From Bdellovibrionia bacterium (lineage in GTDB: Bacteria; Bdellovibrionota; UBA1018): a stretch of 44,755 bases of DNA. The position numbers and the translations under genes were made by a program. The stretch is from assembly GCA_044347055.1 (NCBI GenBank), contig JBIIXZ010000002.1, positions 1 to 44,755 of the forward strand, read 5' to 3'. Positions 209-41,553 of this stretch are shown here, in pieces (position 1 is the first letter of the stretch; every line of letters begins with the position of its first letter). Under the pieces are notes generated by a model. That model saw only the letters and a program-made list of their open reading frames with translations, made no database searches and was not told where the DNA came from.

Positions 209-805
209 ATGAACTCCCGCACGCCTACCCCAGCAAGCAAACCGCGTCGCCCCCGGCAACTATCACTACTTCCGAGGATGGCCGATCACCTCGGCTCTTC
301 ACGACATGGCGGCGGCGTGAACCGTGGAATGCGCAAACAGCGCCGCCCGCTCGACACTCGCCGGCCAATCCACCTGACGATGAGATCGAGTCGCGCCCGC
401 GGAGCCTGGAGCCTGCTCCACCCGCGGCACGTGCGACTGCTCGACGCTTTCGTGGCACGCACCGCGAGAAAGTGGCGCATTCGAATCCACGAGCGCGCGA
501 ATGTCGGCAACCACCTCCACCTGCTGATTCGAGCGCGGTCTCGACGCGACTTTCAGGGTTTTTTGCGCGAACTTGCAGGTGGAATTGCCATGCGCGTGAC
601 TGGAGCACGCAAGTCGGCCGAGCTGGCGGGCGGCCACTTCTGGGACGATCTCGCCTTCACACGAGTCGTTCACTGGGGACGTGACCTCCAGCGAACCGTC
701 CAGTACATCGTGACGAATGCCTTCGAGGCGGCAGGCCTTCTCTCCAGCTCCGAGAAGGCTGCGGGAATTCGAGCGGTCAACGCGCGCTTCGCTGACTCGA
801 GCTGA
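209..805 (+). CDS. IS200/IS605-type Y1 (HUH) transposase-like protein, REP-associated tyrosine transposase (RAYT)-like
   Basis: HUH motif NHLHLLI (H102, H104). GHFWDDLAF block. Candidate catalytic Tyr in VQYIVTNAFE (Y166). N-terminal RRPIHLTMRS block typical of the family. The true start may be M24 or M41. Confidence 0.7.
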   Translation: MNSRTPTPASKPRRPRQLSLLPRMADHLGSSRHGGGVNRGMRKQRRPLDTRRPIHLTMRSSRARGAWSLLHPRHVRLLDAFVARTARKWRIRIHERANVGNHLHLLIRARSRRDFQGFLRELAGGIAMRVTGARKSAELAGGHFWDDLAFTRVVHWGRDLQRTVQYIVTNAFEAAGLLSSSEKAAGIRAVNARFADSS

Positions 806-20765: not shown

Positions 20766-21512
20766 ATGACGAAGGTCCGTTCGATTTTCATCACGGATGT
20801 GGGCTCGAAGCGCGCCAAGAACCAGGACAACGGCCTGGCCTCCCCCGAGTACGGCTTCTGCGTGATCGCAGACGGCATGGGCGGCCACCGTGGCGGAGAA
20901 ACCGCGAGCCGCATCGCCGTCGAAAAGCAGAGCGAATCGCTGATCCGTCCCTCGCAAGGAAAGCCGTTGCCCGACCGCATGATCGAGGGCCTGAGGCAGG
21001 CGCACGACAGCATTTACCAGATGTCGCAGGAAAATGAGTCGCTCCGAGGCATGGGCACCACCTCGACCTTCCTGGCCCTGGATGACTCCAAGAATCCCAG
21101 CGAAGCCTGGATCACCCACGTCGGAGACTCCCGCTGCTATCTCGTGAAACCCGGAGCCATCTGGCAGCTCACCCGCGATCACTCGATGGTCCAGGAGAAG
21201 CTTCGTGCGGGACTCATCACGCGCGAGCAGCTCAAGACCGACGTCATGCGGAACGTCATCACGCGCTCCGTCGGTTTCGAGCTCCAGCTCGATCCGGACC
21301 TCTACCACCTCGAGGTTTCGAGCAATGATCTTTTCCTGCTTTGCTCGGACGGGCTCACAGGCCAGCTGGAAGACCTCGAAATCCTGGCGGTCGTCGATGA
21401 GTGCCGGCCATCGAGGGACTGGGAAGAGTGCGCACGGCGACTGATCGCCCTCGCCAATGAACGCGGCGGCGACGACAACATCAGCGTCGGCATTCTCGAT
21501 ATCGGAGACTGA
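20766..21512 (+). CDS. PP2C-family Ser/Thr protein phosphatase (Stp-like)
   Basis: Motifs ADGMGGHRGGE, THVGDSRCY, LCSDGL and GGDDNISV. Confidence 0.85.
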   Translation: MTKVRSIFITDVGSKRAKNQDNGLASPEYGFCVIADGMGGHRGGETASRIAVEKQSESLIRPSQGKPLPDRMIEGLRQAHDSIYQMSQENESLRGMGTTSTFLALDDSKNPSEAWITHVGDSRCYLVKPGAIWQLTRDHSMVQEKLRAGLITREQLKTDVMRNVITRSVGFELQLDPDLYHLEVSSNDLFLLCSDGLTGQLEDLEILAVVDECRPSRDWEECARRLIALANERGGDDNISVGILDIGD

Positions 21513-21513
21513 A

Positions 21514-22467
21514 ATGGGACGACCGAACCGCTACTACACGCTGCTCGTCATTCCGGAACACACTTCCGCGGTCCGACGCTGGATCATTCCCAACTGGGTG
21601 GTCCGAACGGCAGGCGTTGCAGGACTTTTCGTGGTGACGATCGGGATCATCATGATCCTCGACTACTGGTACGTCATGGGCCAGATCTCCGAAAACAAGG
21701 AGCTGCGGGTCGAGAATCGACAGCTGCGCCAGCAGGTGCAGGTCTTCGAGAACAAGATTGCCACCATCGAGGAGACGATGGAGCGGATCAGGACCTTCAG
21801 CACTCGCCTGAAGGTGATCACGAACATCGAAGACCGGAACAAGCTGATCGAGTCGCTCAACGAAAACCTTCCGGACGCCTCGACCAACATCGAAACGAAG
21901 TTTGCCCTTCGTTCGGCCGGCGGCAGTGCGGCAAACCCGGAAGAGCTCCGCCTGGCTCGGAACCAGGCGGACTGGGAGCTCCGGTTCAGCCAGATCTCTC
22001 AGCAGAGTTCGCTTCTGGAGCAGCAGCTTCATGACCAATACGAGCTGCTCTCCGACCAGCGCGCCTTTCTCGACGCGACGCCGACCCGCAAGCCTGCCGT
22101 GGGCTATTTCACTTCCGGTTTCGGCGTCCGCAAATCACCGTATGGCGGCCGAGAAAAGATGCATGAGGGCCTGGATATCGCCAATTATCCGGGCACCGCG
22201 ATCCGAGCTCCGGCCGATGGCACCGTGACCTTCGCGGGCAGCAAGGCCGGATACGGCCAGACGCTGATCATCGACCATGGGTACCGCCTCGAAACCTGGT
22301 ACGCCCACAACAGCAAGATCCTGGTTCGAGTCGGGCAGCGCGTGCGGCGCGGCGACCCCATCGCCCGCCTCGGAAACAGCGGCCGCAGCACCGGTCCGCA
22401 CCTGCATTACGAGGTGCGTATTAATGGCACTCCCGTCGATCCGCTCTCGTACATTTTAGAAAACTGA
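21514..22467 (+). CDS. M23 family metallopeptidase (murein endopeptidase-like) with N-terminal TM anchor and coiled coil
   Basis: Motifs HEGLDIA and [10 protein letters not shown] segment [17 protein letters not shown]. The start lies 1 nt after the PP2C stop. Confidence 0.85.
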
Positions 22468-25355: not shown

Positions 25356-26294
25356 ATGACCTCGGAAAAGTGGTTCGACTGGGACACTTCCGACAGCCCT
25401 GGGGCGGAGGCTTCCGCACCCGCGGTGTCGCCTGAAGTTTCCTCTGATGCGGGAACTCCCCTCCCGGAGGGCGGCGGGGTGGTGCCACCCGCGGCTCTGG
25501 ACGAGTTTCAGCCCCTGGAGGCGATGCCGGTCGAGCCGATGGCCGGCGAGCCTGCGGAGTCTCCAGCACCAGCCCTTTCGGATGCGCTTTCAGATCCGCC
25601 TGCGGATGCCCGCTTCGACCAGCAGGAGCAGCGGACTGCGACAGCCCTGAAGCAGTTGAATGTGCCTGCTCCGCCCGCGGTCGTGGATGCGGCGCGCCCG
25701 TTTCACCTCTGGATCACCGGAGCGCTTCGAAACCATGAGAAGGAACGCCTGGTCGAGCTGATTGCCCGAGAGAACTTCGGAATCCGCGAAGTCGATCTTG
25801 AAATTCAGTTCGAGGCCGGTCGGATCCTGCTGCCACGGATCAGCGAATTTTGCGTCGTCCTCGTGGCGCAAACGCTTCGCGGGGCGGCCGTTGAATTGAA
25901 GCTCGAACCGAGCGAGCATGCCACCGCCCCACACTCTCCCGATGGGTTTCAAGCCCGGCTGAACCCCGCCTCGGCGCAATCGAAGAGCGCGCCCCATCCT
26001 GCAGAGGATCTTCCGGTCACCGACCAGCCCCTGTTCGCGGGACGTGGCGAGCACGAGGCCCTCGATGTCCTCATGGCCACCGGAATGATCCAGGAGCCGG
26101 AATGGCGAGCCGAGACGAGCGATGCCTTCTCTGAAATGGTCGAATCGCTGAAGCGCGAGCTTCGCTTCAAGGCACACTTGAAGGGAGCCGACGGGCTCGT
26201 GAACTACGAGGCGAAGGTCATGAATAGTCCCTGGATCACCGAATCCGAATGCCGCATCCAGGTGACCGCGACTGCCGTACGATTTCGGAAGTGA
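25356..26294 (+). CDS. Hypothetical protein (acidic/Pro-rich N-terminus, two globular segments)
   Basis: RBS GAGGG precedes the ATG. GC3-rich codons. No motif recognised. Confidence 0.5.
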   Translation: MTSEKWFDWDTSDSPGAEASAPAVSPEVSSDAGTPLPEGGGVVPPAALDEFQPLEAMPVEPMAGEPAESPAPALSDALSDPPADARFDQQEQRTATALKQLNVPAPPAVVDAARPFHLWITGALRNHEKERLVELIARENFGIREVDLEIQFEAGRILLPRISEFCVVLVAQTLRGAAVELKLEPSEHATAPHSPDGFQARLNPASAQSKSAPHPAEDLPVTDQPLFAGRGEHEALDVLMATGMIQEPEWRAETSDAFSEMVESLKRELRFKAHLKGADGLVNYEAKVMNSPWITESECRIQVTATAVRFRK

Positions 26295-27998
26295 TCACGG
26301 CTGAAGGCAGATTCGCCCTTCGCGACACGCCGACTCCAGCGCTGCGCTGAGCGCCTCCTCCTCTTCGCGGGACATCTGAACGAACGAAACTCCCATTCGG
26401 CTCAAAGCCCTTCCGGTCCATCGCACCTGGCAGATGAACTCCCTCACTTTCGAACCCAGCTCCGCCTCCAGCGGGGTTCCACGAAACGAGGTGCGTAGTG
26501 AAAATACGGTTCCCACCGGCGCCAGATGTTCCGACTCGATCATCATTCCTTCAGTGGACAAGTCCAGGACCCGGCCGCGCGACTGCAGGCAAGACTCACG
26601 GTGTAGCACGTCGTTATGCCGGAACTCGAGATCCATGGCGCTGCCGAAGGCATAACGAGCGAATCGACGCCGAACAGAAGGATCGACAAACTCCTGTCCC
26701 TCATCAATGCCACGCTTGAAGAACCCTTCTTCGGGCCTGACCTTCAGGAAATACCGGCAGCGCCTGACGTATTCCATTGCTACGGCATCCTGGGGATAGA
26801 CTGCCAGGCAGTGCCGGAACCGCTCGAGAGCCTCGACGAACTTTCGCTCGGAGTAGGCCTCGATGCCCGAGAGGAAGGTTCGACGGATCTCGAGCTTTTT
26901 TCGCAGGATCGGCTCCGGATCTCCCGAGAACAGCTCGAAAACCTGGACAGGCTGCGACCGCCCGCGAACCCGAAGGTTGTCGACCAGCCTGCAGGCCGAC
27001 TCGCGCGTCACCGGGTCCAGGCGATCATGGGTGCTCGCAGAAATCAGCACCTGCGAGTGGAACGACTTGGTGAGCTTCTCGATCCGCGCCGAAAGATTCA
27101 CATGGTCTCCCATGACGGTGCTGGTCATGCGCTCCTGTGAACCGATCGCGGCGTACACGACCGGCCCCGTATTGATGCCGATTCCGACGCGAAGATGCTC
27201 GAAGTCCGCGCTCGATTTTTCCGCAAGCCGTGAAAGGATCCACCTCTGCACTTGCACCGCTGCAGCCGCCGCCTTGATGGACGATTCCTCTCCTTCAAAA
27301 ACGGCCATGAAGGAATCGCCGCTGAAATTGTCGATGTATCCATCGTGGGCGGAGATCATCGGAACGAGGTTCTGAAAGAGCTCGCCCAGGATCTTCACGC
27401 TCGTCTCGGAGCCGAGGCGCTCCGCGAGGCTCGTGAATCCGCGAACGTCCAGGAAAAGTACGGTCACCTCGTCGTCATCGTAGATGCCGGGCTCGACCCG
27501 CAGCGTCGTCCGAATGCGCTCCTGGAATTTTCGGGGAACAAACTGCAGGAAGAGCTCATTGAGCTTTGCCAGCTCGGCGGTGCGTTCGCGGACTCGAAGC
27601 TCCAGCTGGTCATTCACGCGCATCAGAAGAGATCGATTTTCCAAGGCCTTTCGCTGGATGCGGATTCGCGCACGGATCAGCGCGGGCGAGCACGGCTTGG
27701 CGATAAAATCGGCAACGCCTTGCTCCAGTGATGCCTCGGCATTCGATCCTTCGGAAATGACGATGACCGGAGTGTCGAACTCATCCGTGATTCCAAGGAC
27801 AGCTTCGAGGACGCCATTTTCAACCGCTCCGGGATCCACGAGCATGAGATCGGGCCTCTCGGAAAGCAGGGCCGTGCGCCAATCGCCATCGGTCGACAGG
27901 ATGATGGGTTCAAAGCTCCACTCCTGAAGCCAGCGCGCCAGCGCCGTTCGCCATGCCCCATCGTCGTCCCAGACCGCCACCCGAAACCGAGCTGCCAT
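26295..27998 (-). CDS. Response-regulator receiver - class III adenylate/guanylate cyclase - PilZ domain fusion protein
   Basis: REC: D11-D13, D55 (LMLVD), S82, K101-P. Cyclase: FLDVRGFT (D184), GDSFMAVF (D228), VNLSAR (N301, R305). PilZ: RRRFAR (443-448) and DLSTEG (479-484). Confidence 0.8.
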   Translation of the reverse strand: MAARFRVAVWDDDGAWRTALARWLQEWSFEPIILSTDGDWRTALLSERPDLMLVDPGAVENGVLEAVLGITDEFDTPVIVISEGSNAEASLEQGVADFIAKPCSPALIRARIRIQRKALENRSLLMRVNDQLELRVRERTAELAKLNELFLQFVPRKFQERIRTTLRVEPGIYDDDEVTVLFLDVRGFTSLAERLGSETSVKILGELFQNLVPMISAHDGYIDNFSGDSFMAVFEGEESSIKAAAAAVQVQRWILSRLAEKSSADFEHLRVGIGINTGPVVYAAIGSQERMTSTVMGDHVNLSARIEKLTKSFHSQVLISASTHDRLDPVTRESACRLVDNLRVRGRSQPVQVFELFSGDPEPILRKKLEIRRTFLSGIEAYSERKFVEALERFRHCLAVYPQDAVAMEYVRRCRYFLKVRPEEGFFKRGIDEGQEFVDPSVRRRFARYAFGSAMDLEFRHNDVLHRESCLQSRGRVLDLSTEGMMIESEHLAPVGTVFSLRTSFRGTPLEAELGSKVREFICQVRWTGRALSRMGVSFVQMSREEEEALSAALESACREGRICLQP

Positions 27999-28038
27999 TA
28001 CTCTTGAGGGTACCCGAGCGCAGGCCTAGAGTGAAGCC

Positions 28039-28764
28039 ATGTGCGGCCGTTTCGTGCTGAAGACAGACCTTGCCCGGCTCCTCGACACCTTCCGTGCGAG
28101 CGTGCTTGAGCCCCACGAATTCCGACCTCGCTACAACATCGCACCATCGCAGGAGATTCCGGTGGTTGTGTCCGTGGCGACCGGGGACCGCAGTGTGCAG
28201 TGGATGAAGTGGGGCCTCATTCCTTCCTGGTCCGGCGACAAATCGATGGCCTCCAGCCTGATCAACGCGCGAGCGGAGACGGCGGCGGAGAAGCCTTCAT
28301 TTCGAGCCCCATTTCGGAGTCGCAGGTGCATCGTTCCGGCCACGGGCTTTTACGAATGGAAAAGCGGCGGAGGAAAACGAAAGGTTCCGCACCTCATTGA
28401 AGTGGATGGCCAGCCCCTCTTTGCGATGGCGGGATTATGGGATCGTTGGGAAGTCCGCGACCTCTCCGGAAATAAGAGCGGCGAAATCATCGAGACCTTT
28501 TCCATTCTCACCGTGGACGCCATTCCGGAACTTCAATGGCTCCATCATCGAATGCCACGCATCGTCTCGGGAGCGGAGCTCGAGCAGTGGCTCGATCCCG
28601 CCTCCGATCCTGCCGAGCTGACGGAATGGATTGCTCGCCCACCCGAAGTCCGCATCCGCCACCGGGCCGTGACTCGCGACGTGAACTCGCCACAGAATGA
28701 TTCTCCGGAGCTGCTGGACACTCCGCCTGAAACCGATCTCTTTGGAAACTGGATCGAGGACTGA
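28039..28764 (+). CDS. SOS-response-associated peptidase (SRAP/YedK), abasic-site processing protein
   Basis: N-terminal MCGRF with catalytic Cys2. Family blocks PRYNIAPSQ, GFYEW and HHRMPRIV. Confidence 0.85.
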   Translation: MCGRFVLKTDLARLLDTFRASVLEPHEFRPRYNIAPSQEIPVVVSVATGDRSVQWMKWGLIPSWSGDKSMASSLINARAETAAEKPSFRAPFRSRRCIVPATGFYEWKSGGGKRKVPHLIEVDGQPLFAMAGLWDRWEVRDLSGNKSGEIIETFSILTVDAIPELQWLHHRMPRIVSGAELEQWLDPASDPAELTEWIARPPEVRIRHRAVTRDVNSPQNDSPELLDTPPETDLFGNWIED

Positions 28765-37262: not shown

Positions 37263-37709
37263 ATGGCGGCCGAACTTCCGCAGGGAGATTTCGCGGATGA
37301 AGGATCAGCTCCGATCAGCGCGATCAACGTCACTCCGTTCGTCGACGTCGTTCTCGTCCTGCTGGTGATCTTCATGATCACGGCTCCGGCGATGATGCGA
37401 GAGACGCTGGGCATCCGGCTTCCGAAGGCATCGAGCACGGAAGGCGCGCAGCCCCAGACGCTTGCGATTGCCATCAATGAGCAGGGACAGATCCTGCTCA
37501 ACGGAAAGCTCTCGAGCAGCGAAGAGCTTCAGCTCGAGGCAGAATCCGCGATCAAGGCCAATCCCTCCGTGCAGGCACTGATCGCTGCCGACGAAAACTC
37601 GAAGCACTCCGCGCTCGTGTCCGTCGTCGATGCTCTGAAAACGGTCGGGCTGGAGCGTTTTGCCATCCAGGTGGCGAGGCCTGAAAGAAAGCCGGAGAGC
37701 CAGCGCTGA
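37263..37709 (+). CDS. exbD: ExbD/TolR biopolymer transport protein
   Basis: INVTPFVDVVLVLLVIFMITAP TM segment with the conserved Asp. Confidence 0.85.
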   Translation: MAAELPQGDFADEGSAPISAINVTPFVDVVLVLLVIFMITAPAMMRETLGIRLPKASSTEGAQPQTLAIAINEQGQILLNGKLSSSEELQLEAESAIKANPSVQALIAADENSKHSALVSVVDALKTVGLERFAIQVARPERKPESQR

Positions 37710-38368
37710 TGTCGCAGCACTCCGCAACGATCGATGGATTGGATTCGAGAGCCCTTCGCGGTTCGATCCTGATCCATGCAGGAATCGCGGCGCTGTATCT
37801 TCTTGCCGTCGTGCTGCCTCGCCTCGTTTCAGATCGCGGGCCACTCGAAAAGATCGACTTCGACGTGATCGACGCTCCGAAGGTGGCGCCCCAGCCGCTG
37901 GAAGCTGCGCCGCCGAAGCCGAAACAGGAGGCCGCCAAGCCGCGCTCGGTCTTCGGCCTTTCTCGGAAAGCGATCACCGGCTCGGACTCATCGGCCCCCT
38001 CCAGCAAGGCAGGAAACACGCTGGCCAAGGAGCAGGACCAGGAAAAGCTGCGTGACGACGACGCCGACTCGCTTCCGATTCCGACGGACGAGTACCTCGT
38101 GAGCCAGATGCCGGTCCTCCTTTCCGACTTTCGCGTGCCCTACCCTCCTGATGCCCGAAAGGCCGGAGTCCAGGGCGCGGTCATTCTCGATCTGCTGATC
38201 GACGGCGAAGGACGCGTGCGCCAGGCCGCCGTGGCACAGAAGCTTTTTCCTTCGCTCGATGAAGCCGCCCTGAAGGCGGCATCGGGCCTGAAGTTCAAAC
38301 CGGCGCGAGTCGCCGAAAAAACCGTCGCCGTAAGGATTCGCTATGCGTACCGATTCGTCCTGGAGTGA
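37709..38368 (+). CDS. tonB: Energy transducer TonB (TM anchor, Pro-rich spacer, TonB C-terminal domain)
   Basis: 1-nt overlap with exbD (TGATG). Spacer APQPLEAAPPKPKQE. C-terminal VPYPPDARKAGVQGAVILDLLIDGEGRV. Confidence 0.8.
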   Translation: MSQHSATIDGLDSRALRGSILIHAGIAALYLLAVVLPRLVSDRGPLEKIDFDVIDAPKVAPQPLEAAPPKPKQEAAKPRSVFGLSRKAITGSDSSAPSSKAGNTLAKEQDQEKLRDDDADSLPIPTDEYLVSQMPVLLSDFRVPYPPDARKAGVQGAVILDLLIDGEGRVRQAAVAQKLFPSLDEAALKAASGLKFKPARVAEKTVAVRIRYAYRFVLE

Positions 38369-38411
38369 TCCCATCTTTCCGACGCTCGCGTGCCCTCGTG
38401 CCGGAGCGGCA

Positions 38412-39245
38412 ATGGTCTTGGCTCTCGCCTCTCTGCTTCTTGGCGGTTGCGGAAACGACAACCTGGATGAGTCTCAGCAGCTGGGTCCTCTTCGCGTGCT
38501 GGCACTTGTGGCCGATCGCCCGGAGGTGACCATTGATGACGCGACTCCGGTGAGCATCACGGCATGGATCAGCGATTACGACAAGGGAGGCCAGCCGGGC
38601 CGGAGTCTGCAGTATGACTATGCCGTCTGTCCGGATCCAGGAATTGCGTACGGAGTGGAGCCGAGATGCCCGACCGCCACACGGTTATCCTTCGGAGACA
38701 GTGTTCCCATTGACGTCAGCCCCATGACCTCGCTCAACGCTTACACCGCCGCCTTATTCACGCAGGCCGTGATCATTCCCACAACCGCAGTTGCTCCGTG
38801 GAACCTGTACTGGTCCAGCAAGACTGCAGCCGAAAAATCCAATGGTGTCGCCCTCCTCGTGACCTTCAGGATCAGCTCCGGCAGCGAAGAAACCACGGCC
38901 TTTCGTCGAATCACCATCACCACCCGCTCCGGCGCGGCACTCAACCAGAATTCGCTGGCGATTACTGGCATCACCCCTTCCAGCCTGCCGACCAGCGAAG
39001 GCAAGGTCAGCCCCAATCTTGCGGCAACCGCGGACAATTACACCATCACCACCAGTGACGGAACGGTCGTGAATCGAACCGAGAAACTGACCGTGAGCTG
39101 GTACACCACTGCCGGCGAATTCAAGTTCAATCGTACGGACGGCGGCTCCGCCAACACGTGGACGCCGCCGACCAGTGGCACCGCCAAAGTGTTTTTGTTC
39201 CTGCGCGATGACCGAGGAGGAGTGAGCGATGCGTTTTCACTCTAA
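38412..39245 (+). CDS. Hypothetical lipoprotein
   Basis: Lipobox LLLGGC after the ATG at 38412. Overlaps the receptor gene by 17 nt. Confidence 0.55.
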   Translation: MVLALASLLLGGCGNDNLDESQQLGPLRVLALVADRPEVTIDDATPVSITAWISDYDKGGQPGRSLQYDYAVCPDPGIAYGVEPRCPTATRLSFGDSVPIDVSPMTSLNAYTAALFTQAVIIPTTAVAPWNLYWSSKTAAEKSNGVALLVTFRISSGSEETTAFRRITITTRSGAALNQNSLAITGITPSSLPTSEGKVSPNLAATADNYTITTSDGTVVNRTEKLTVSWYTTAGEFKFNRTDGGSANTWTPPTSGTAKVFLFLRDDRGGVSDAFSL

Positions 39246-41553
39246 GCTCTCTTCCATCCGCAGGCTCTCCAGCTCGCTCGCACTCGGCGGCGCCCTCATG
39301 GGCGGCAGCCTGATCTCGGCCAGCACTACTGAAGCGGCTCCACTCGAAGGCATTCTGCGCGAACGCGGCACCCGTAATCCGCTGGCCGACGTTTCGGTAT
39401 TCGTGCTTCCTCACAAGCTCAAGGCCACGACCGACGCGCAGGGGCGATTTCGCTTCGAAGATGTGCCGGAGGGCCCGATCAGCTTCGTCGTGAATGCAGC
39501 GGGCTTCTTGAAACTCGAGGAGCAGGACTTCGCCGCCGCGCCTACCGTGGCGGGAGCCGACTCCAGGGCGCTGCGCGAGCTCTTCGTCGAGCGCACCGCC
39601 TACGGCACCTACGAAACCACGGTGACGGGACGGGCGGATCGGCGTGATGACTCGCGCCGAACGCTGAAGGCATCGCAGGTGAAGACGCTGCCCGGAGCCG
39701 GAGGTGATCCGCTCAAGGCCATCCAGAATCTTCCGGGCGTGAACCGCCCCGCGCCGTTCAGTTCGCAGGTCATCATCCAGGGGGCAGCCCCACGCGATAC
39801 CCGCTACCTGATCAACGGACACGAAGTGCCGATCATCTTCCACTTCGGCGGCCTGAGCTCGGTCGTCCTGCCGGATGCACTCGATCGTGTGGATTACCTC
39901 ACTGCAGGCTATGGCCCCGAATACGGACGTGCGCTCGGCGGCCTCGTCGGAGTCTGGACGCGAAGCCCGCGAACCGACCGCGTGCACGGAATGGCTTTCG
40001 TCGACCTGATCAACGCAGGCGGATACGTCGAAGGCCCTGCCGGAGAAAAGGGACGCTTCCTGATCGGCGCGCGCCAGAGCTACATTGGCGCCATCCTGGG
40101 CGCAGTGGCCGGCGACAACGATGCCTTCAACTTCACCCTGGCCCCGACCTTCGGCGATGTGGTCGGCATCTACGAACGCCCGCTCACCGACCGCGATGAG
40201 TTCAAGATCGTCACGGTCGGCTCGAGCGACAATCTGTCCTTCGTGCTCAAGCAGCCGGTGGGCACGGACCCGAGCCTTCGTGGAAACTTCAACACGACCA
40301 CCCGGTTCTTCCGCATCATCCCCGAACTCCAGCACACCCACAGCTCGCGAACCCGCTCGCGCTGGTCGCTCGGAATCGGCCGCGACTGGATCAAGTTCAA
40401 CACGAGCGAAAACAACTTCAAGATCTTCACCTGGTCACTGACGACGCGCGGAGAGGTCGAACGCGAAATGTCCGACCGCTGGACGGCGCACTGGGGCTTC
40501 GACAACGCCTATACCTGGGCTCGAGTCGACATCCTGCTTCGCGACGTCTTCTTCGACGGCGGCGTAGGAAACCCCTTCAGCAGCGGCGAACTTCGAAACG
40601 CCGGCGTGGACAACAAGCAGGTGCGAATCGGTGCCTACTGGCGCAACGAAGTGCGGATGACACCGTACTGGACCCTGCTTCCTTCGGTTCGTCTCGAGAC
40701 CATCCGAAGCAACTCGAACAACGTTCGCGAAGTCTTTCCGCTCGCACGACTGGCTTCACGCTACGCGCTCAGCGATTCGCTCACGCTTCGAGCGGCCACA
40801 GGACGCTATGTCCAGGCTCCACAGCCGCAGGAAATTGATCCGACCTTCGGCAATCCGGACGTACGCTCGCCGACCTCGTGGCATGGCTCGCTGGGGTTTG
40901 AAAAAGACTTCCGACAAGGAAGCTCCACGGGCTGGCGCTGGAGCGGCGGAGCCTTTTACCGAGACTTCAACAGCCTCGTCGTCCCCTCCGCCACGGCCGT
41001 GGTGCGCAATGGACAGACGGTTCCGGAGAACTTCAACAACGCGGGCGAAGGACGCGCCTATGGCGTCGAAAATCTCCTGCAGATGGATTTCGCACCGTGG
41101 ACGGGATGGCTCTCGTACACTGCGGCTCGCAGCACGCGCCGGCAGCCGGGACAGATCGAATATCCCTTCCAGTTCGATCAAACCCACCTGCTGACGGCGA
41201 TCGCTGCAGTGGATCTGCCTCGAAACTGGAGGATCAGCTCGCGCATTCGATACGCCACCGGAAATCCGACCACACCCATCGTCGGCGCCACCTACGACGC
41301 CGACAATGACGTCTACTTTCCGAATCGCGGAGGATTTTACTCGGAGCGTCTCCAGCCGTTTCTCCAGCTCGACATGCGCTTCGACAAGAAGTGGATCTAC
41401 AAGACCTGGATTCTCTCCGGCTATCTCGACATTCAGAACGTGACGAACCGGAAGAACCTCGAAGCCGTGCAGTACTCGTACAACTTCCAGCAGCGCGACG
41501 TGGTCGGCGGCCTGCCGATCATTCCGACGCTCGGGGTGCAGGCGGAGTTCTAG
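39229..41553 (+). CDS. TonB-dependent receptor with N-terminal carboxypeptidase-regulatory-like domain
   Basis: Signal peptide. VFVLPHKLKATTDAQGRFRFEDVPEG (CarbopepD_reg-like). Plug segment LPGVNRP. C-terminal GVQAEF. Confidence 0.8.
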   Translation: MRFHSKLSSIRRLSSSLALGGALMGGSLISASTTEAAPLEGILRERGTRNPLADVSVFVLPHKLKATTDAQGRFRFEDVPEGPISFVVNAAGFLKLEEQDFAAAPTVAGADSRALRELFVERTAYGTYETTVTGRADRRDDSRRTLKASQVKTLPGAGGDPLKAIQNLPGVNRPAPFSSQVIIQGAAPRDTRYLINGHEVPIIFHFGGLSSVVLPDALDRVDYLTAGYGPEYGRALGGLVGVWTRSPRTDRVHGMAFVDLINAGGYVEGPAGEKGRFLIGARQSYIGAILGAVAGDNDAFNFTLAPTFGDVVGIYERPLTDRDEFKIVTVGSSDNLSFVLKQPVGTDPSLRGNFNTTTRFFRIIPELQHTHSSRTRSRWSLGIGRDWIKFNTSENNFKIFTWSLTTRGEVEREMSDRWTAHWGFDNAYTWARVDILLRDVFFDGGVGNPFSSGELRNAGVDNKQVRIGAYWRNEVRMTPYWTLLPSVRLETIRSNSNNVREVFPLARLASRYALSDSLTLRAATGRYVQAPQPQEIDPTFGNPDVRSPTSWHGSLGFEKDFRQGSSTGWRWSGGAFYRDFNSLVVPSATAVVRNGQTVPENFNNAGEGRAYGVENLLQMDFAPWTGWLSYTAARSTRRQPGQIEYPFQFDQTHLLTAIAAVDLPRNWRISSRIRYATGNPTTPIVGATYDADNDVYFPNRGGFYSERLQPFLQLDMRFDKKWIYKTWILSGYLDIQNVTNRKNLEAVQYSYNFQQRDVVGGLPIIPTLGVQAEF

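Follow-up and report, generated by a model that had tools for sequence, protein, structure and literature searches.

A class III nucleotidyl cyclase with a receiver and a PilZ domain in a Bdellovibrionia bacterium, a candidate meeting point of phosphorelay and c-di-GMP signals

Domain organization of the receiver-cyclase-PilZ protein

We analysed a 44,755-nucleotide stretch of DNA from a Bdellovibrionia bacterium (contig JBIIXZ010000002.1; hereafter the window), which carries on its minus strand a gene for a putative multidomain nucleotidyl cyclase (Table 1). The gene starts with ATG and encodes 567 codons, and an independent gene call on the 78.8-kb source contig gave the same 567-aa product. 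The initial annotation had read it as a single polypeptide that joins a phospho-receiver (REC), a class III cyclase, a TPR-like helix pair, and a PilZ domain of the type that binds cyclic di-GMP (c-di-GMP). Every residue on which that reading was built (DDD 11-13, D55, S82, K101, D184, D228, N301, R305, RRRFAR 443-448, and DLSTEG 479-484) lies at the position given. A word-indexed protein search returned 12 full-length relatives sharing 46-85% identity with the protein, after which the scores fall from 525 to 165 bits; we refer to this group of close homologues as the clade. Two AlphaFold2 models, both of the monomer, were used for the structural comparisons: a full-length model with 12 homologues as input (mean predicted local distance difference test, pLDDT, 77) and a separate model of the C-terminal 211 residues (pLDDT 81). 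The full-length model places the receiver at residues 6-104, a long helix at 105-150, the cyclase core at 177-356, helices at 362-420, a low-confidence segment at 421-448, a barrel at 449-541, and a last helix at 544-559. The REC, cyclase, and PilZ parts are each modelled confidently.

The catalytic domain was identified from both sequence and fold. It matches the Pfam family Guanylate_cyc (PF00211) over residues 175-351 (84.6 bits, E 8.6e-24; cut-off 21.9), and its sequence matches in the PDB include Synechocystis Cya2 (2w01, 81 bits) and Pseudomonas aeruginosa CyaB (3r5g, 70 bits). The full-length model superimposes on Spirulina CyaC, Cya2, and CyaB with template modelling (TM) scores of 0.72-0.78 on target. 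The metal-binding residues D184 and D228 and the transition-state residues N301 and R305 align with those of Cya2 and CyaB. Together with N224 and T294, these residues are invariant in 12 clade members.

The residues that specify the base depart from both known types. At position 224 the protein reads IDNFSGD, compared with IDEFMGD in 2w01, IDKFMGD in 6fht (E488K), and IDKFVGD in 3r5g; T294 aligns with a Thr of CyaB and a Gly of Cya2. The pair Asn224-Thr294 is neither the Lys-Asp/Thr pair of ATP-converting enzymes nor the Glu-Cys/Ser/Gly pair of GTP-converting enzymes. Etzl et al. state that E488K alone switches Cya2 from GTP to ATP and describe this residue as the determinant of base specificity (PMC5995499). 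Across 131 cyclase domains, Asn-Thr occurs solely in the clade (17/17), whereas Lys-Thr is found in 73 and Glu-Gly in 13. Asn at 224 is likewise confined to the clade among 165 classified sequences, a set that partly overlaps the 131, and the PilZ-bearing relatives outside the clade in those 165 are all Lys-Thr or Lys-Ser. A column-by-column comparison showed that K224N is accompanied in the clade by S183L, A229S, I230F, and G283A. The first of these adjoins the metal-binding Asp184, and A229S and I230F adjoin the metal-binding Asp228. Judged from the alignments, the catalytic machinery appears intact and base recognition appears to have been rebuilt. The cyclic AMP (cAMP) or cyclic GMP (cGMP) output proposed initially is not secure. 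The product is probably cAMP, because Thr294 is retained and the nearest relatives all carry the Lys-Thr pair of adenylate cyclases; cAMP is nevertheless not to be assumed, because the Lys has become Asn224 within a remodelled, clade-specific pocket.

The receiver is matched by the NCBIfam VirG response-regulator model (43.7 bits, E 2.6e-11) and by 39 PDB receiver sequences at E < 0.01, and phmmer comparison with the receiver structures of CpxR, MtrA, and RstA gave E values of about 1e-6. In the alignment with these 3 proteins, S82 falls on Thr, K101 on Lys, and D55 on the phospho-acceptor Asp; D11-D13 of the acidic pocket, the aromatic switch residue F98, and P102 align as well. The model forms five strand-helix units with a pLDDT of about 80-94. 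Across the clade, D13, D55, and K101-P102 never vary, and 10 of 11 members have Ser or Thr at position 82.

The segment between receiver and cyclase is read as a signalling helix followed by a cyclase transducer element (CTE). Its invariant E138-R139-T140 is presumably the ERT signature of signalling helices, reportedly described by Anantharaman et al. in 2006. In the model, the helix spans residues 105-150 and confidence is low over 145-175, as expected for the monomer model of a dimeric coil. The motif F-L-[QRK]-F-V-P resembles the FGRY motif of the CTE, a concept and motif taken from PMC5995499. In related cyclases, sensors act via a coiled-coil linker and a CTE (PMC5995499).

Behind the cyclase core, the models place helices at 362-383, 387-400, and 405-420. 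This hairpin and the linker that leads from it to PilZ belong to the best conserved stretches of the protein, and the hairpin also occurs in cyclases without PilZ. The designed TPR 2wqh matches the C-terminal region at E 0.019, which is sub-threshold; Pfam TPR_2 scores 16.6-23.9 bits in homologues, under the cut-off of 27, and a Pfam search of the 567-aa protein gave no TPR match up to E 1. The label TPR-like is reasonable, but there are three helices rather than a pair, and all TPR matches are sub-threshold.

The C-terminal domain matches Pfam PilZ (PF07238) over residues 443-554. With the cyclase, it is one of two domains whose assignment was confirmed above the Pfam cut-off. Canonical PilZ domains combine an RxxxRhxh motif, a [D/N]hSxxG motif, and a barrel-plus-helix fold (Galperin and Chou preprint). 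Here, R444-xxx-R448 is preceded by R443 and followed by Y-A-F, which fits the first pattern; D479-L-S-T-E-G484 fits the second. RRRxxR and DxSxxG are both kept in all 11 clade members that reach that far. The double mutant proposed in the initial annotation, R443A/R447A, contains a numbering slip, since position 447 holds an Ala and the RxxxR motif is formed by R444 and R448. The preceding linker further conserves F426, F427, R429, G430, E433, G434, D439, and P440. The domain is modelled as six strands within 449-541 and a helix at 544-559 (pLDDT 80-94). The best 39 Foldseek matches of the C-terminal model are all PilZ domains, headed by Alg44 with c-di-GMP (TM 0.77 on target) and followed by YcgR, MapZ, PP4397, BcsA, and MotI. 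These PilZ matches come from the fold search: a PDB sequence search with the C-terminal 209 aa gave no PilZ match, and Foldseek with the full-length model was dominated by cyclases. Taken from its motifs, the domain is predicted to bind c-di-GMP.

Table 1. Coordinates of the cyclase gene and its features in the window
Feature	Coordinates	Strand	Basis
Whole gene: REC, helical linker, class III cyclase, TPR-like hairpin, Arg-rich linker, PilZ	26295..27998	-	567 aa + stop
REC domain, residues 5-118 (D11-D12-D13, D55, S82, F98, K101-P102)	27645..27986	-	Pfam (below cut-off), NCBIfam, alignment, model
D55 codon, predicted phospho-acceptor	27834..27836	-	Alignment with phospho-Asp of CpxR and MtrA
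Helical linker, residues 119-170, continuing REC alpha-5	27489..27644	-	Invariant columns and model
E138-R139-T140 in the linker, invariant	27579-27587	-	Clade alignment
F150-L-Q-F-V-P155 in the linker (F150 and F153-V-P155 invariant)	27534-27551	-	Clade alignment
Class III cyclase catalytic domain, residues 171-358 (D184, D228, N301, R305, N224, T294)	26925..27488	-	Pfam, PDB, fold
N224 codon (Lys in adenylate cyclases, Glu488 in Cya2)	27327..27329	-	Structure-homologue alignment
A283 codon, replacing Gly	27150..27152	-	Gly in 153/153 relatives outside the clade
TPR-like hairpin, residues 359-421, motif FPQDxVxxEYVRRCRYFxK	26736..26924	-	Model helices; invariant columns
Conserved linker, residues 422-448, predicted flexible	26655..26735	-	pLDDT < 50 in both models
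R443-R444-R445-F-A-R448 at the linker end, RRxxxR c-di-GMP motif	26655-26672	-	Motif
PilZ beta-barrel and C-terminal helix, residues 449-560	26319..26654	-	Pfam, model, Foldseek
D479-L-S-T-E-G484, [D/N]xSxxG motif	26547-26564	-	Motif

Recurrence of the architecture and genomic context

The wider family was collected by a profile search of 1.84 billion representative proteins. We classified 165 sequences, comprising 162 library proteins (150 listed matches and other clade members) and 5 open reading frames (ORFs) from SAR324/TL4 loci. Thirty of the 165 have the order REC-cyclase-hairpin-PilZ, 10 carry cyclase-hairpin-PilZ behind other N-termini, and 73 are REC-cyclase-hairpin proteins without PilZ. 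The PilZ counts are a lower bound, as the PilZ domain of P0135 was seen by Pfam and missed by the clade-specific hidden Markov model (HMM). At least about 25-30 protein clusters carry the cyclase-PilZ combination, nearly all with the intervening TPR-like hairpin, and those with a taxon label are Bdellovibrionota or SAR324 metagenome-assembled genomes (MAGs). Genome matches are labelled as Bacteriovorax, Oligoflexia, and Bdellovibrionales MAGs, and the DNA sequencing runs that contain the gene are lake or freshwater metagenomes. The census suggested along with the initial annotation thus found the design recurring in MAGs of Bdellovibrionota and SAR324, and cyclase-PilZ proteins make up a genuine, if small, family that spans at least two phyla. 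An assembly chimera was ruled out by the presence of the same architecture in many independent assemblies and in two phyla.

The sensors in front of cyclase-PilZ that were confirmed by Pfam are REC, REC-PAS, GAF, NIT-PAS, and sCache-HAMP, and the PilZ domains behind them score 32-52 bits. Both c-di-GMP motifs are mostly kept across the cyclase-PilZ clusters, and inspection by eye found both intact in the SAR324 ORFs. PilZ has been kept repeatedly behind different sensors, its ligand motifs intact, which points to a domain that would serve the cyclase. In some SAR324-type relatives (L007, 7995-10043; P0127; P0135), PilZ is followed by a STAS domain resembling anti-sigma-factor antagonists, in the order REC-cyclase-hairpin-PilZ-STAS. 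P0050, a 590-aa metagenomic protein with the order sCache-HAMP-cyclase-PilZ, has PilZ directly after the core without the hairpin; here PilZ may have been joined to a class III cyclase in a separate event.

The cyclase gene is monocistronic and lies between plus-strand genes. On the lower-coordinate side are genes for TldD/PmbA, a PP2C phosphatase, an M23 peptidase, and SecA, and an ORF of 312 aa; on the other side, a divergent SRAP gene is followed by genes for HAD, enoyl-CoA hydratase, a GreA-like protein, and Dus. The order TldD-PP2C-M23-SecA-ORF, cyclase gene, SRAP is kept in relatives at 72%, 56%, 51%, and 46% identity. Because this neighbourhood is kept down to 46% identity, the cyclase gene is a vertically inherited core gene in a fixed housekeeping setting. 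We found no conserved partner gene near the cyclase in the four syntenic loci, and no kinase, GGDEF/EAL/HD-GYP, or cyclic nucleotide monophosphate (cNMP)-binding gene in them.

The 312-aa ORF (25356-26294, plus strand), located after SecA, has no Pfam or PADLOC match, and its stop codon abuts that of the cyclase in a convergent arrangement with zero gap. All 4 syntenic relatives have an ORF of 277-323 aa at the same place, which overlaps the 3' end of the cyclase gene by about 10-23 nt in L059, L060, and L061. At the other end, 40 bp (27999-28038) separate the divergent start codons of the cyclase and SRAP genes, the latter YedK-like (MCGRF...). A scan around the gene revealed no promoter-like or terminator-like site, and there is no sigma-70-like promoter in 25900-28500, so the promoters of both genes would lie inside coding sequence or be of another type.

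Elsewhere in the window, the PP2C and M23 peptidase genes (20766-22467, plus strand) directly precede secA, as they do in L058-L061, and their ORFs overlap by 56 nt. A PrkA, DUF444 (YeaH-like), and SpoVR trio (14522-19289, minus strand) constitutes a conserved stress/starvation operon with a third-position GC content (GC3) of 0.86, compared with about 0.7 in its neighbours. An 837-aa protein (7617-10130, plus strand) has a C-terminal Fic/DOC domain (residues 698-785) and a large N-terminal region without a family match. A weak match to an IS200-like Y1 transposase (24.9 bits) is found at 209-805 (plus strand), near the left end. A further cluster (37263-41553, plus strand) encodes ExbD, TonB, an uncharacterized 300-aa ORF product, and a TonB-dependent receptor bearing an N-terminal carboxypeptidase-regulatory-like domain.

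A proposed dimeric cyclase with two candidate inputs

We propose that the protein is a dimeric class III cyclase with two inputs, in which phosphorylation of Asp55 acts through the helical linker and c-di-GMP acts through PilZ; we assign this reading a probability of roughly 0.55. Class III cyclases work as dimers whose active sites form at the subunit interface. The protein would be a soluble homodimer whose catalytic dimer is flanked by two regulatory modules. The orphan receiver would be phosphorylated on Asp55 by a histidine kinase encoded elsewhere. A long helix with the ERT signature and the CTE-like motif would join it to the core, and phosphorylation would alter the packing of the coiled coil and thereby the geometry of both active sites at the dimer interface. 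On the opposite side, the TPR-like hairpin would pack beside the core and lead through the flexible linker to the PilZ barrel. The RxxxR segment of other PilZ proteins becomes ordered only on wrapping around c-di-GMP, an event that re-orients the barrel. Here, the RRxxxR linker on one side and the DxSxxG face of the barrel on the other would grip c-di-GMP. Its binding would order the linker and draw the barrel towards the hairpin or the core, or else bring the dimer's two barrels together, turning catalysis up or down. In this way the enzyme would make a cyclic mononucleotide in response to a phosphorelay signal and to the level of c-di-GMP.

The convergence of two inputs on one cyclase, proposed in the initial annotation, fits the computed domains, the conserved motifs, and the recurrence of the design, whereas an effect of c-di-GMP on catalysis is read from the architecture. 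We infer Asp55 phosphorylation as an input to the cyclase in the same way as the allosteric coupling of c-di-GMP to catalysis and the sign of that coupling. In BcsA, c-di-GMP at PilZ relieves auto-inhibition of the fused enzyme, and by analogy with it we would guess, at little better than even odds, that c-di-GMP activates the cyclase. Cya2 is almost inactive once its 118-aa C-terminal tail has been removed, and the tail changes linker-CTE dynamics (PMC5995499). This precedent, which is only an analogy, suggests that the corresponding face of the core can be regulatory.

Several observations weigh against the proposed two-input enzyme. Homology between the Cya2 tail and the hairpin was not detected, and the hairpin HMM hit none of 13 Cya2-like (Glu-Gly) cyclases. 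The PilZ score is modest (31.3 bits, E 2.6e-7; cut-off 22.5; 30-52 bits in relatives), and the models are of monomers, with no docked PilZ-cyclase interface to inspect. Catalysis could be reduced or changed by the replacement of Lys with Asn and of an otherwise invariant Gly with Ala. There is no histidine kinase, GGDEF/EAL/HD-GYP, or cNMP-binding protein in the 44.7-kb window (about 40 ORFs), and no RNA sequencing run containing the gene was found. The receiver has all the canonical residues initially listed, aligned with those of phosphorylatable receivers, but it is divergent: Pfam Response_reg (PF00072, residues 7-113) scores 25.8 bits (E 1.3e-5), under the cut-off of 30.2, and position 12 varies (D, E, G, P, V), making the acidic pocket atypical in half of the clade.

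These features of the receiver would also suit a constitutive dimerization module that is never phosphorylated, with c-di-GMP as the sole real input. The sub-cut-off Pfam score, the [DE]-x-D pocket, whose position 12 is G, P, or V in P0006-P0011, the Pro that follows D55 in place of the usual hydrophobic-x-Met-Pro, and the lack of a kinase in the window or in four related loci all speak for such a module. However, all five canonical positions are present here in alignment with phosphorylatable receivers, and D13, D55, S/T82 (10/11 members), and K101-P102 are kept throughout the clade. Many response regulators are orphans, and this receiver would be one of them; we regard a module that is never phosphorylated as unlikely. 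Equally unlikely, in our estimate, is a PilZ domain that regulates nothing in cis and instead docks the enzyme, when c-di-GMP is bound, onto a partner protein or a place in the cell, like YcgR at the flagellar motor and MapZ at CheR1. c-di-GMP would then set the site of cyclic nucleotide synthesis and not its amount. The adaptors YcgR, MapZ-CheR1, and MotI among the top fold matches, and the partner-binding STAS domain behind PilZ in some relatives, are consistent with docking, but the highly conserved hairpin and linker between cyclase and PilZ suggest an intramolecular interface, and no partner gene is conserved nearby.

The remodelled pocket raises alternatives of its own. Through K224N, G283A, S183L, A229S, and I230F, the product might, instead of cAMP, be cGMP, both cAMP and cGMP, or a pyrimidine cyclic nucleotide, which we consider rather improbable. 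The position of N224 alone sets the choice between ATP and GTP in the closest solved homologue (Cya2 E488K), every clade member has the Asn and the four flanking changes, Asn and Ala283 never occur outside the clade, and four of the changes bring bulkier side chains. Conversely, Thr294 and the remainder of the pocket are as in Lys-Thr adenylate cyclases, the mycobacterial Rv1900c (Asn-His) and Rv0386 (Gln-Asn) still prefer ATP with non-canonical pairs, and the matches to models of PycC, the cyclase of Pycsar anti-phage systems, are non-specific. It is a speculative extension, with a low chance of being correct, that the rebuilt pocket yields a product other than cAMP, either a pyrimidine cyclic nucleotide or a mixed purine output, as a housekeeping signal and not a phage-defence alarm. 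We consider it very unlikely that the cyclase is crippled and persists as a c-di-GMP- and phosphorylation-dependent scaffold or a nucleotide-binding pseudo-enzyme. The loss of the substrate Lys and of the Gly that 153 of 153 relatives outside the clade keep would suit such a protein, but the invariance of the metal-binding Asp residues and the transition-state Asn and Arg down to 46% identity is hard to explain without catalysis. A Pycsar-type defence cyclase was rejected as extremely improbable. PADLOC PycC models do match at up to 80 bits, but the two that score best also give 61-104 bits to ordinary Lys-Thr cyclases linked to sensors, so the match reflects only a shared fold. Moreover, 7r65, which we take to be a PycC, matches the cyclase at 26.8 bits, compared with 81 bits for Cya2; no effector gene is adjacent (the neighbours are SecA, the 312-aa ORF, SRAP, and HAD), and the housekeeping synteny extends across the clade. 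A GGDEF diguanylate cyclase was also discarded (20.6 bits, below the cut-off of 23.8; no GG[DE]EF motif in the sequence). GGDEF and class III cyclases share a fold, and the weak GGDEF match reflects that.

Relation to known systems and significance

The closest counterparts of the proposed two-input cyclase are the SAR324 REC-cyclase-TPR-PilZ proteins (L007, L008, L009, L011; P0123-P0136), which have the same full-length domain order at 32-35% identity and are likewise uncharacterized. They share the ERT linker, the hairpin motif FPQDxxxxxYIKRCRYF, and both RRxxxR and [DN]xSxxG, but have a canonical receiver (84-91 bits) and the Lys-Thr pair, and some end in STAS. Response-regulator cyclases without PilZ, such as the cyanobacterial CyaC-type enzymes, similarly combine a receiver, a helical linker with CTE, a class IIIb-type core, and often a TPR-like tail; they differ in the Lys-Thr pair, present in 110 of 125 sequences without PilZ. 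Cya2 and CyaB are the closest solved catalytic domains (Foldseek identity 30-32% and 26%, respectively), with the same metal-binding and transition-state residues. Their base pairs are Glu-Gly (GTP) in Cya2 and Lys-Thr (ATP) in CyaB, as opposed to Asn-Thr here. Both have a CTE and no PilZ, the sensor of CyaB is membrane-bound, and the C-terminal tail of Cya2 stimulates activity. The Cya2 sensor is a CHASE2 domain (PMC5995499).

As in cellulose synthase BcsA and in Alg44, systems that c-di-GMP activates, a PilZ domain is here fused to, or would serve, an enzyme. Structurally it is closest to that of Alg44, and it also matches that of BcsA, whose C-terminal PilZ with its RxxxR linker controls catalysis in the same chain. 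BcsA is, however, a membrane glycosyltransferase in which c-di-GMP frees a gating loop, whereas the present protein is predicted to be a soluble dimeric cyclase with a TPR-like spacer. In the same phylum, Bd1971 of Bdellovibrio bacteriovorus is an EAL c-di-GMP phosphodiesterase activated by cAMP (PMC6717892). It also links cAMP and c-di-GMP signalling in one polypeptide, but in the opposite direction, with cNMP-binding and EAL domains that take in cAMP and give out c-di-GMP breakdown.

Pipeline annotation describes the homologues only as 'class 3 adenylate cyclase / CheY-like'. A literature search (full-text search, PilZ census preprint, and nucleotide-signalling reviews) found no report of a PilZ-bearing class III cyclase, in agreement with the initial annotation, which knew of no characterized example; the word 'cyclase' is absent from the Galperin and Chou census preprint. 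Each domain and the modular logic are already known, and it is the combination of cyclase and PilZ for which no published description was found.

If the proposed control by PilZ is correct, it would be the second case, after the polysaccharide synthases, of a PilZ domain controlling an enzyme in cis. The clade-specific Asn pocket poses a separate question about substrate choice in class III cyclases. Predatory bacteria are noted for very large c-di-GMP networks. In the reviews consulted, the known link from c-di-GMP to cAMP is transcriptional, through the action of c-di-GMP/FleQ on cyaA (PMC11139211), and the single direct one-protein link that was found, Bd1971, runs from cAMP to c-di-GMP. 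A cyclase that reads c-di-GMP by its own PilZ domain would supply the missing direct arrow from c-di-GMP to a cyclic mononucleotide; paired with a Bd1971-like enzyme, such a cyclase could tie the two messengers of predatory bacteria into a feedback loop.

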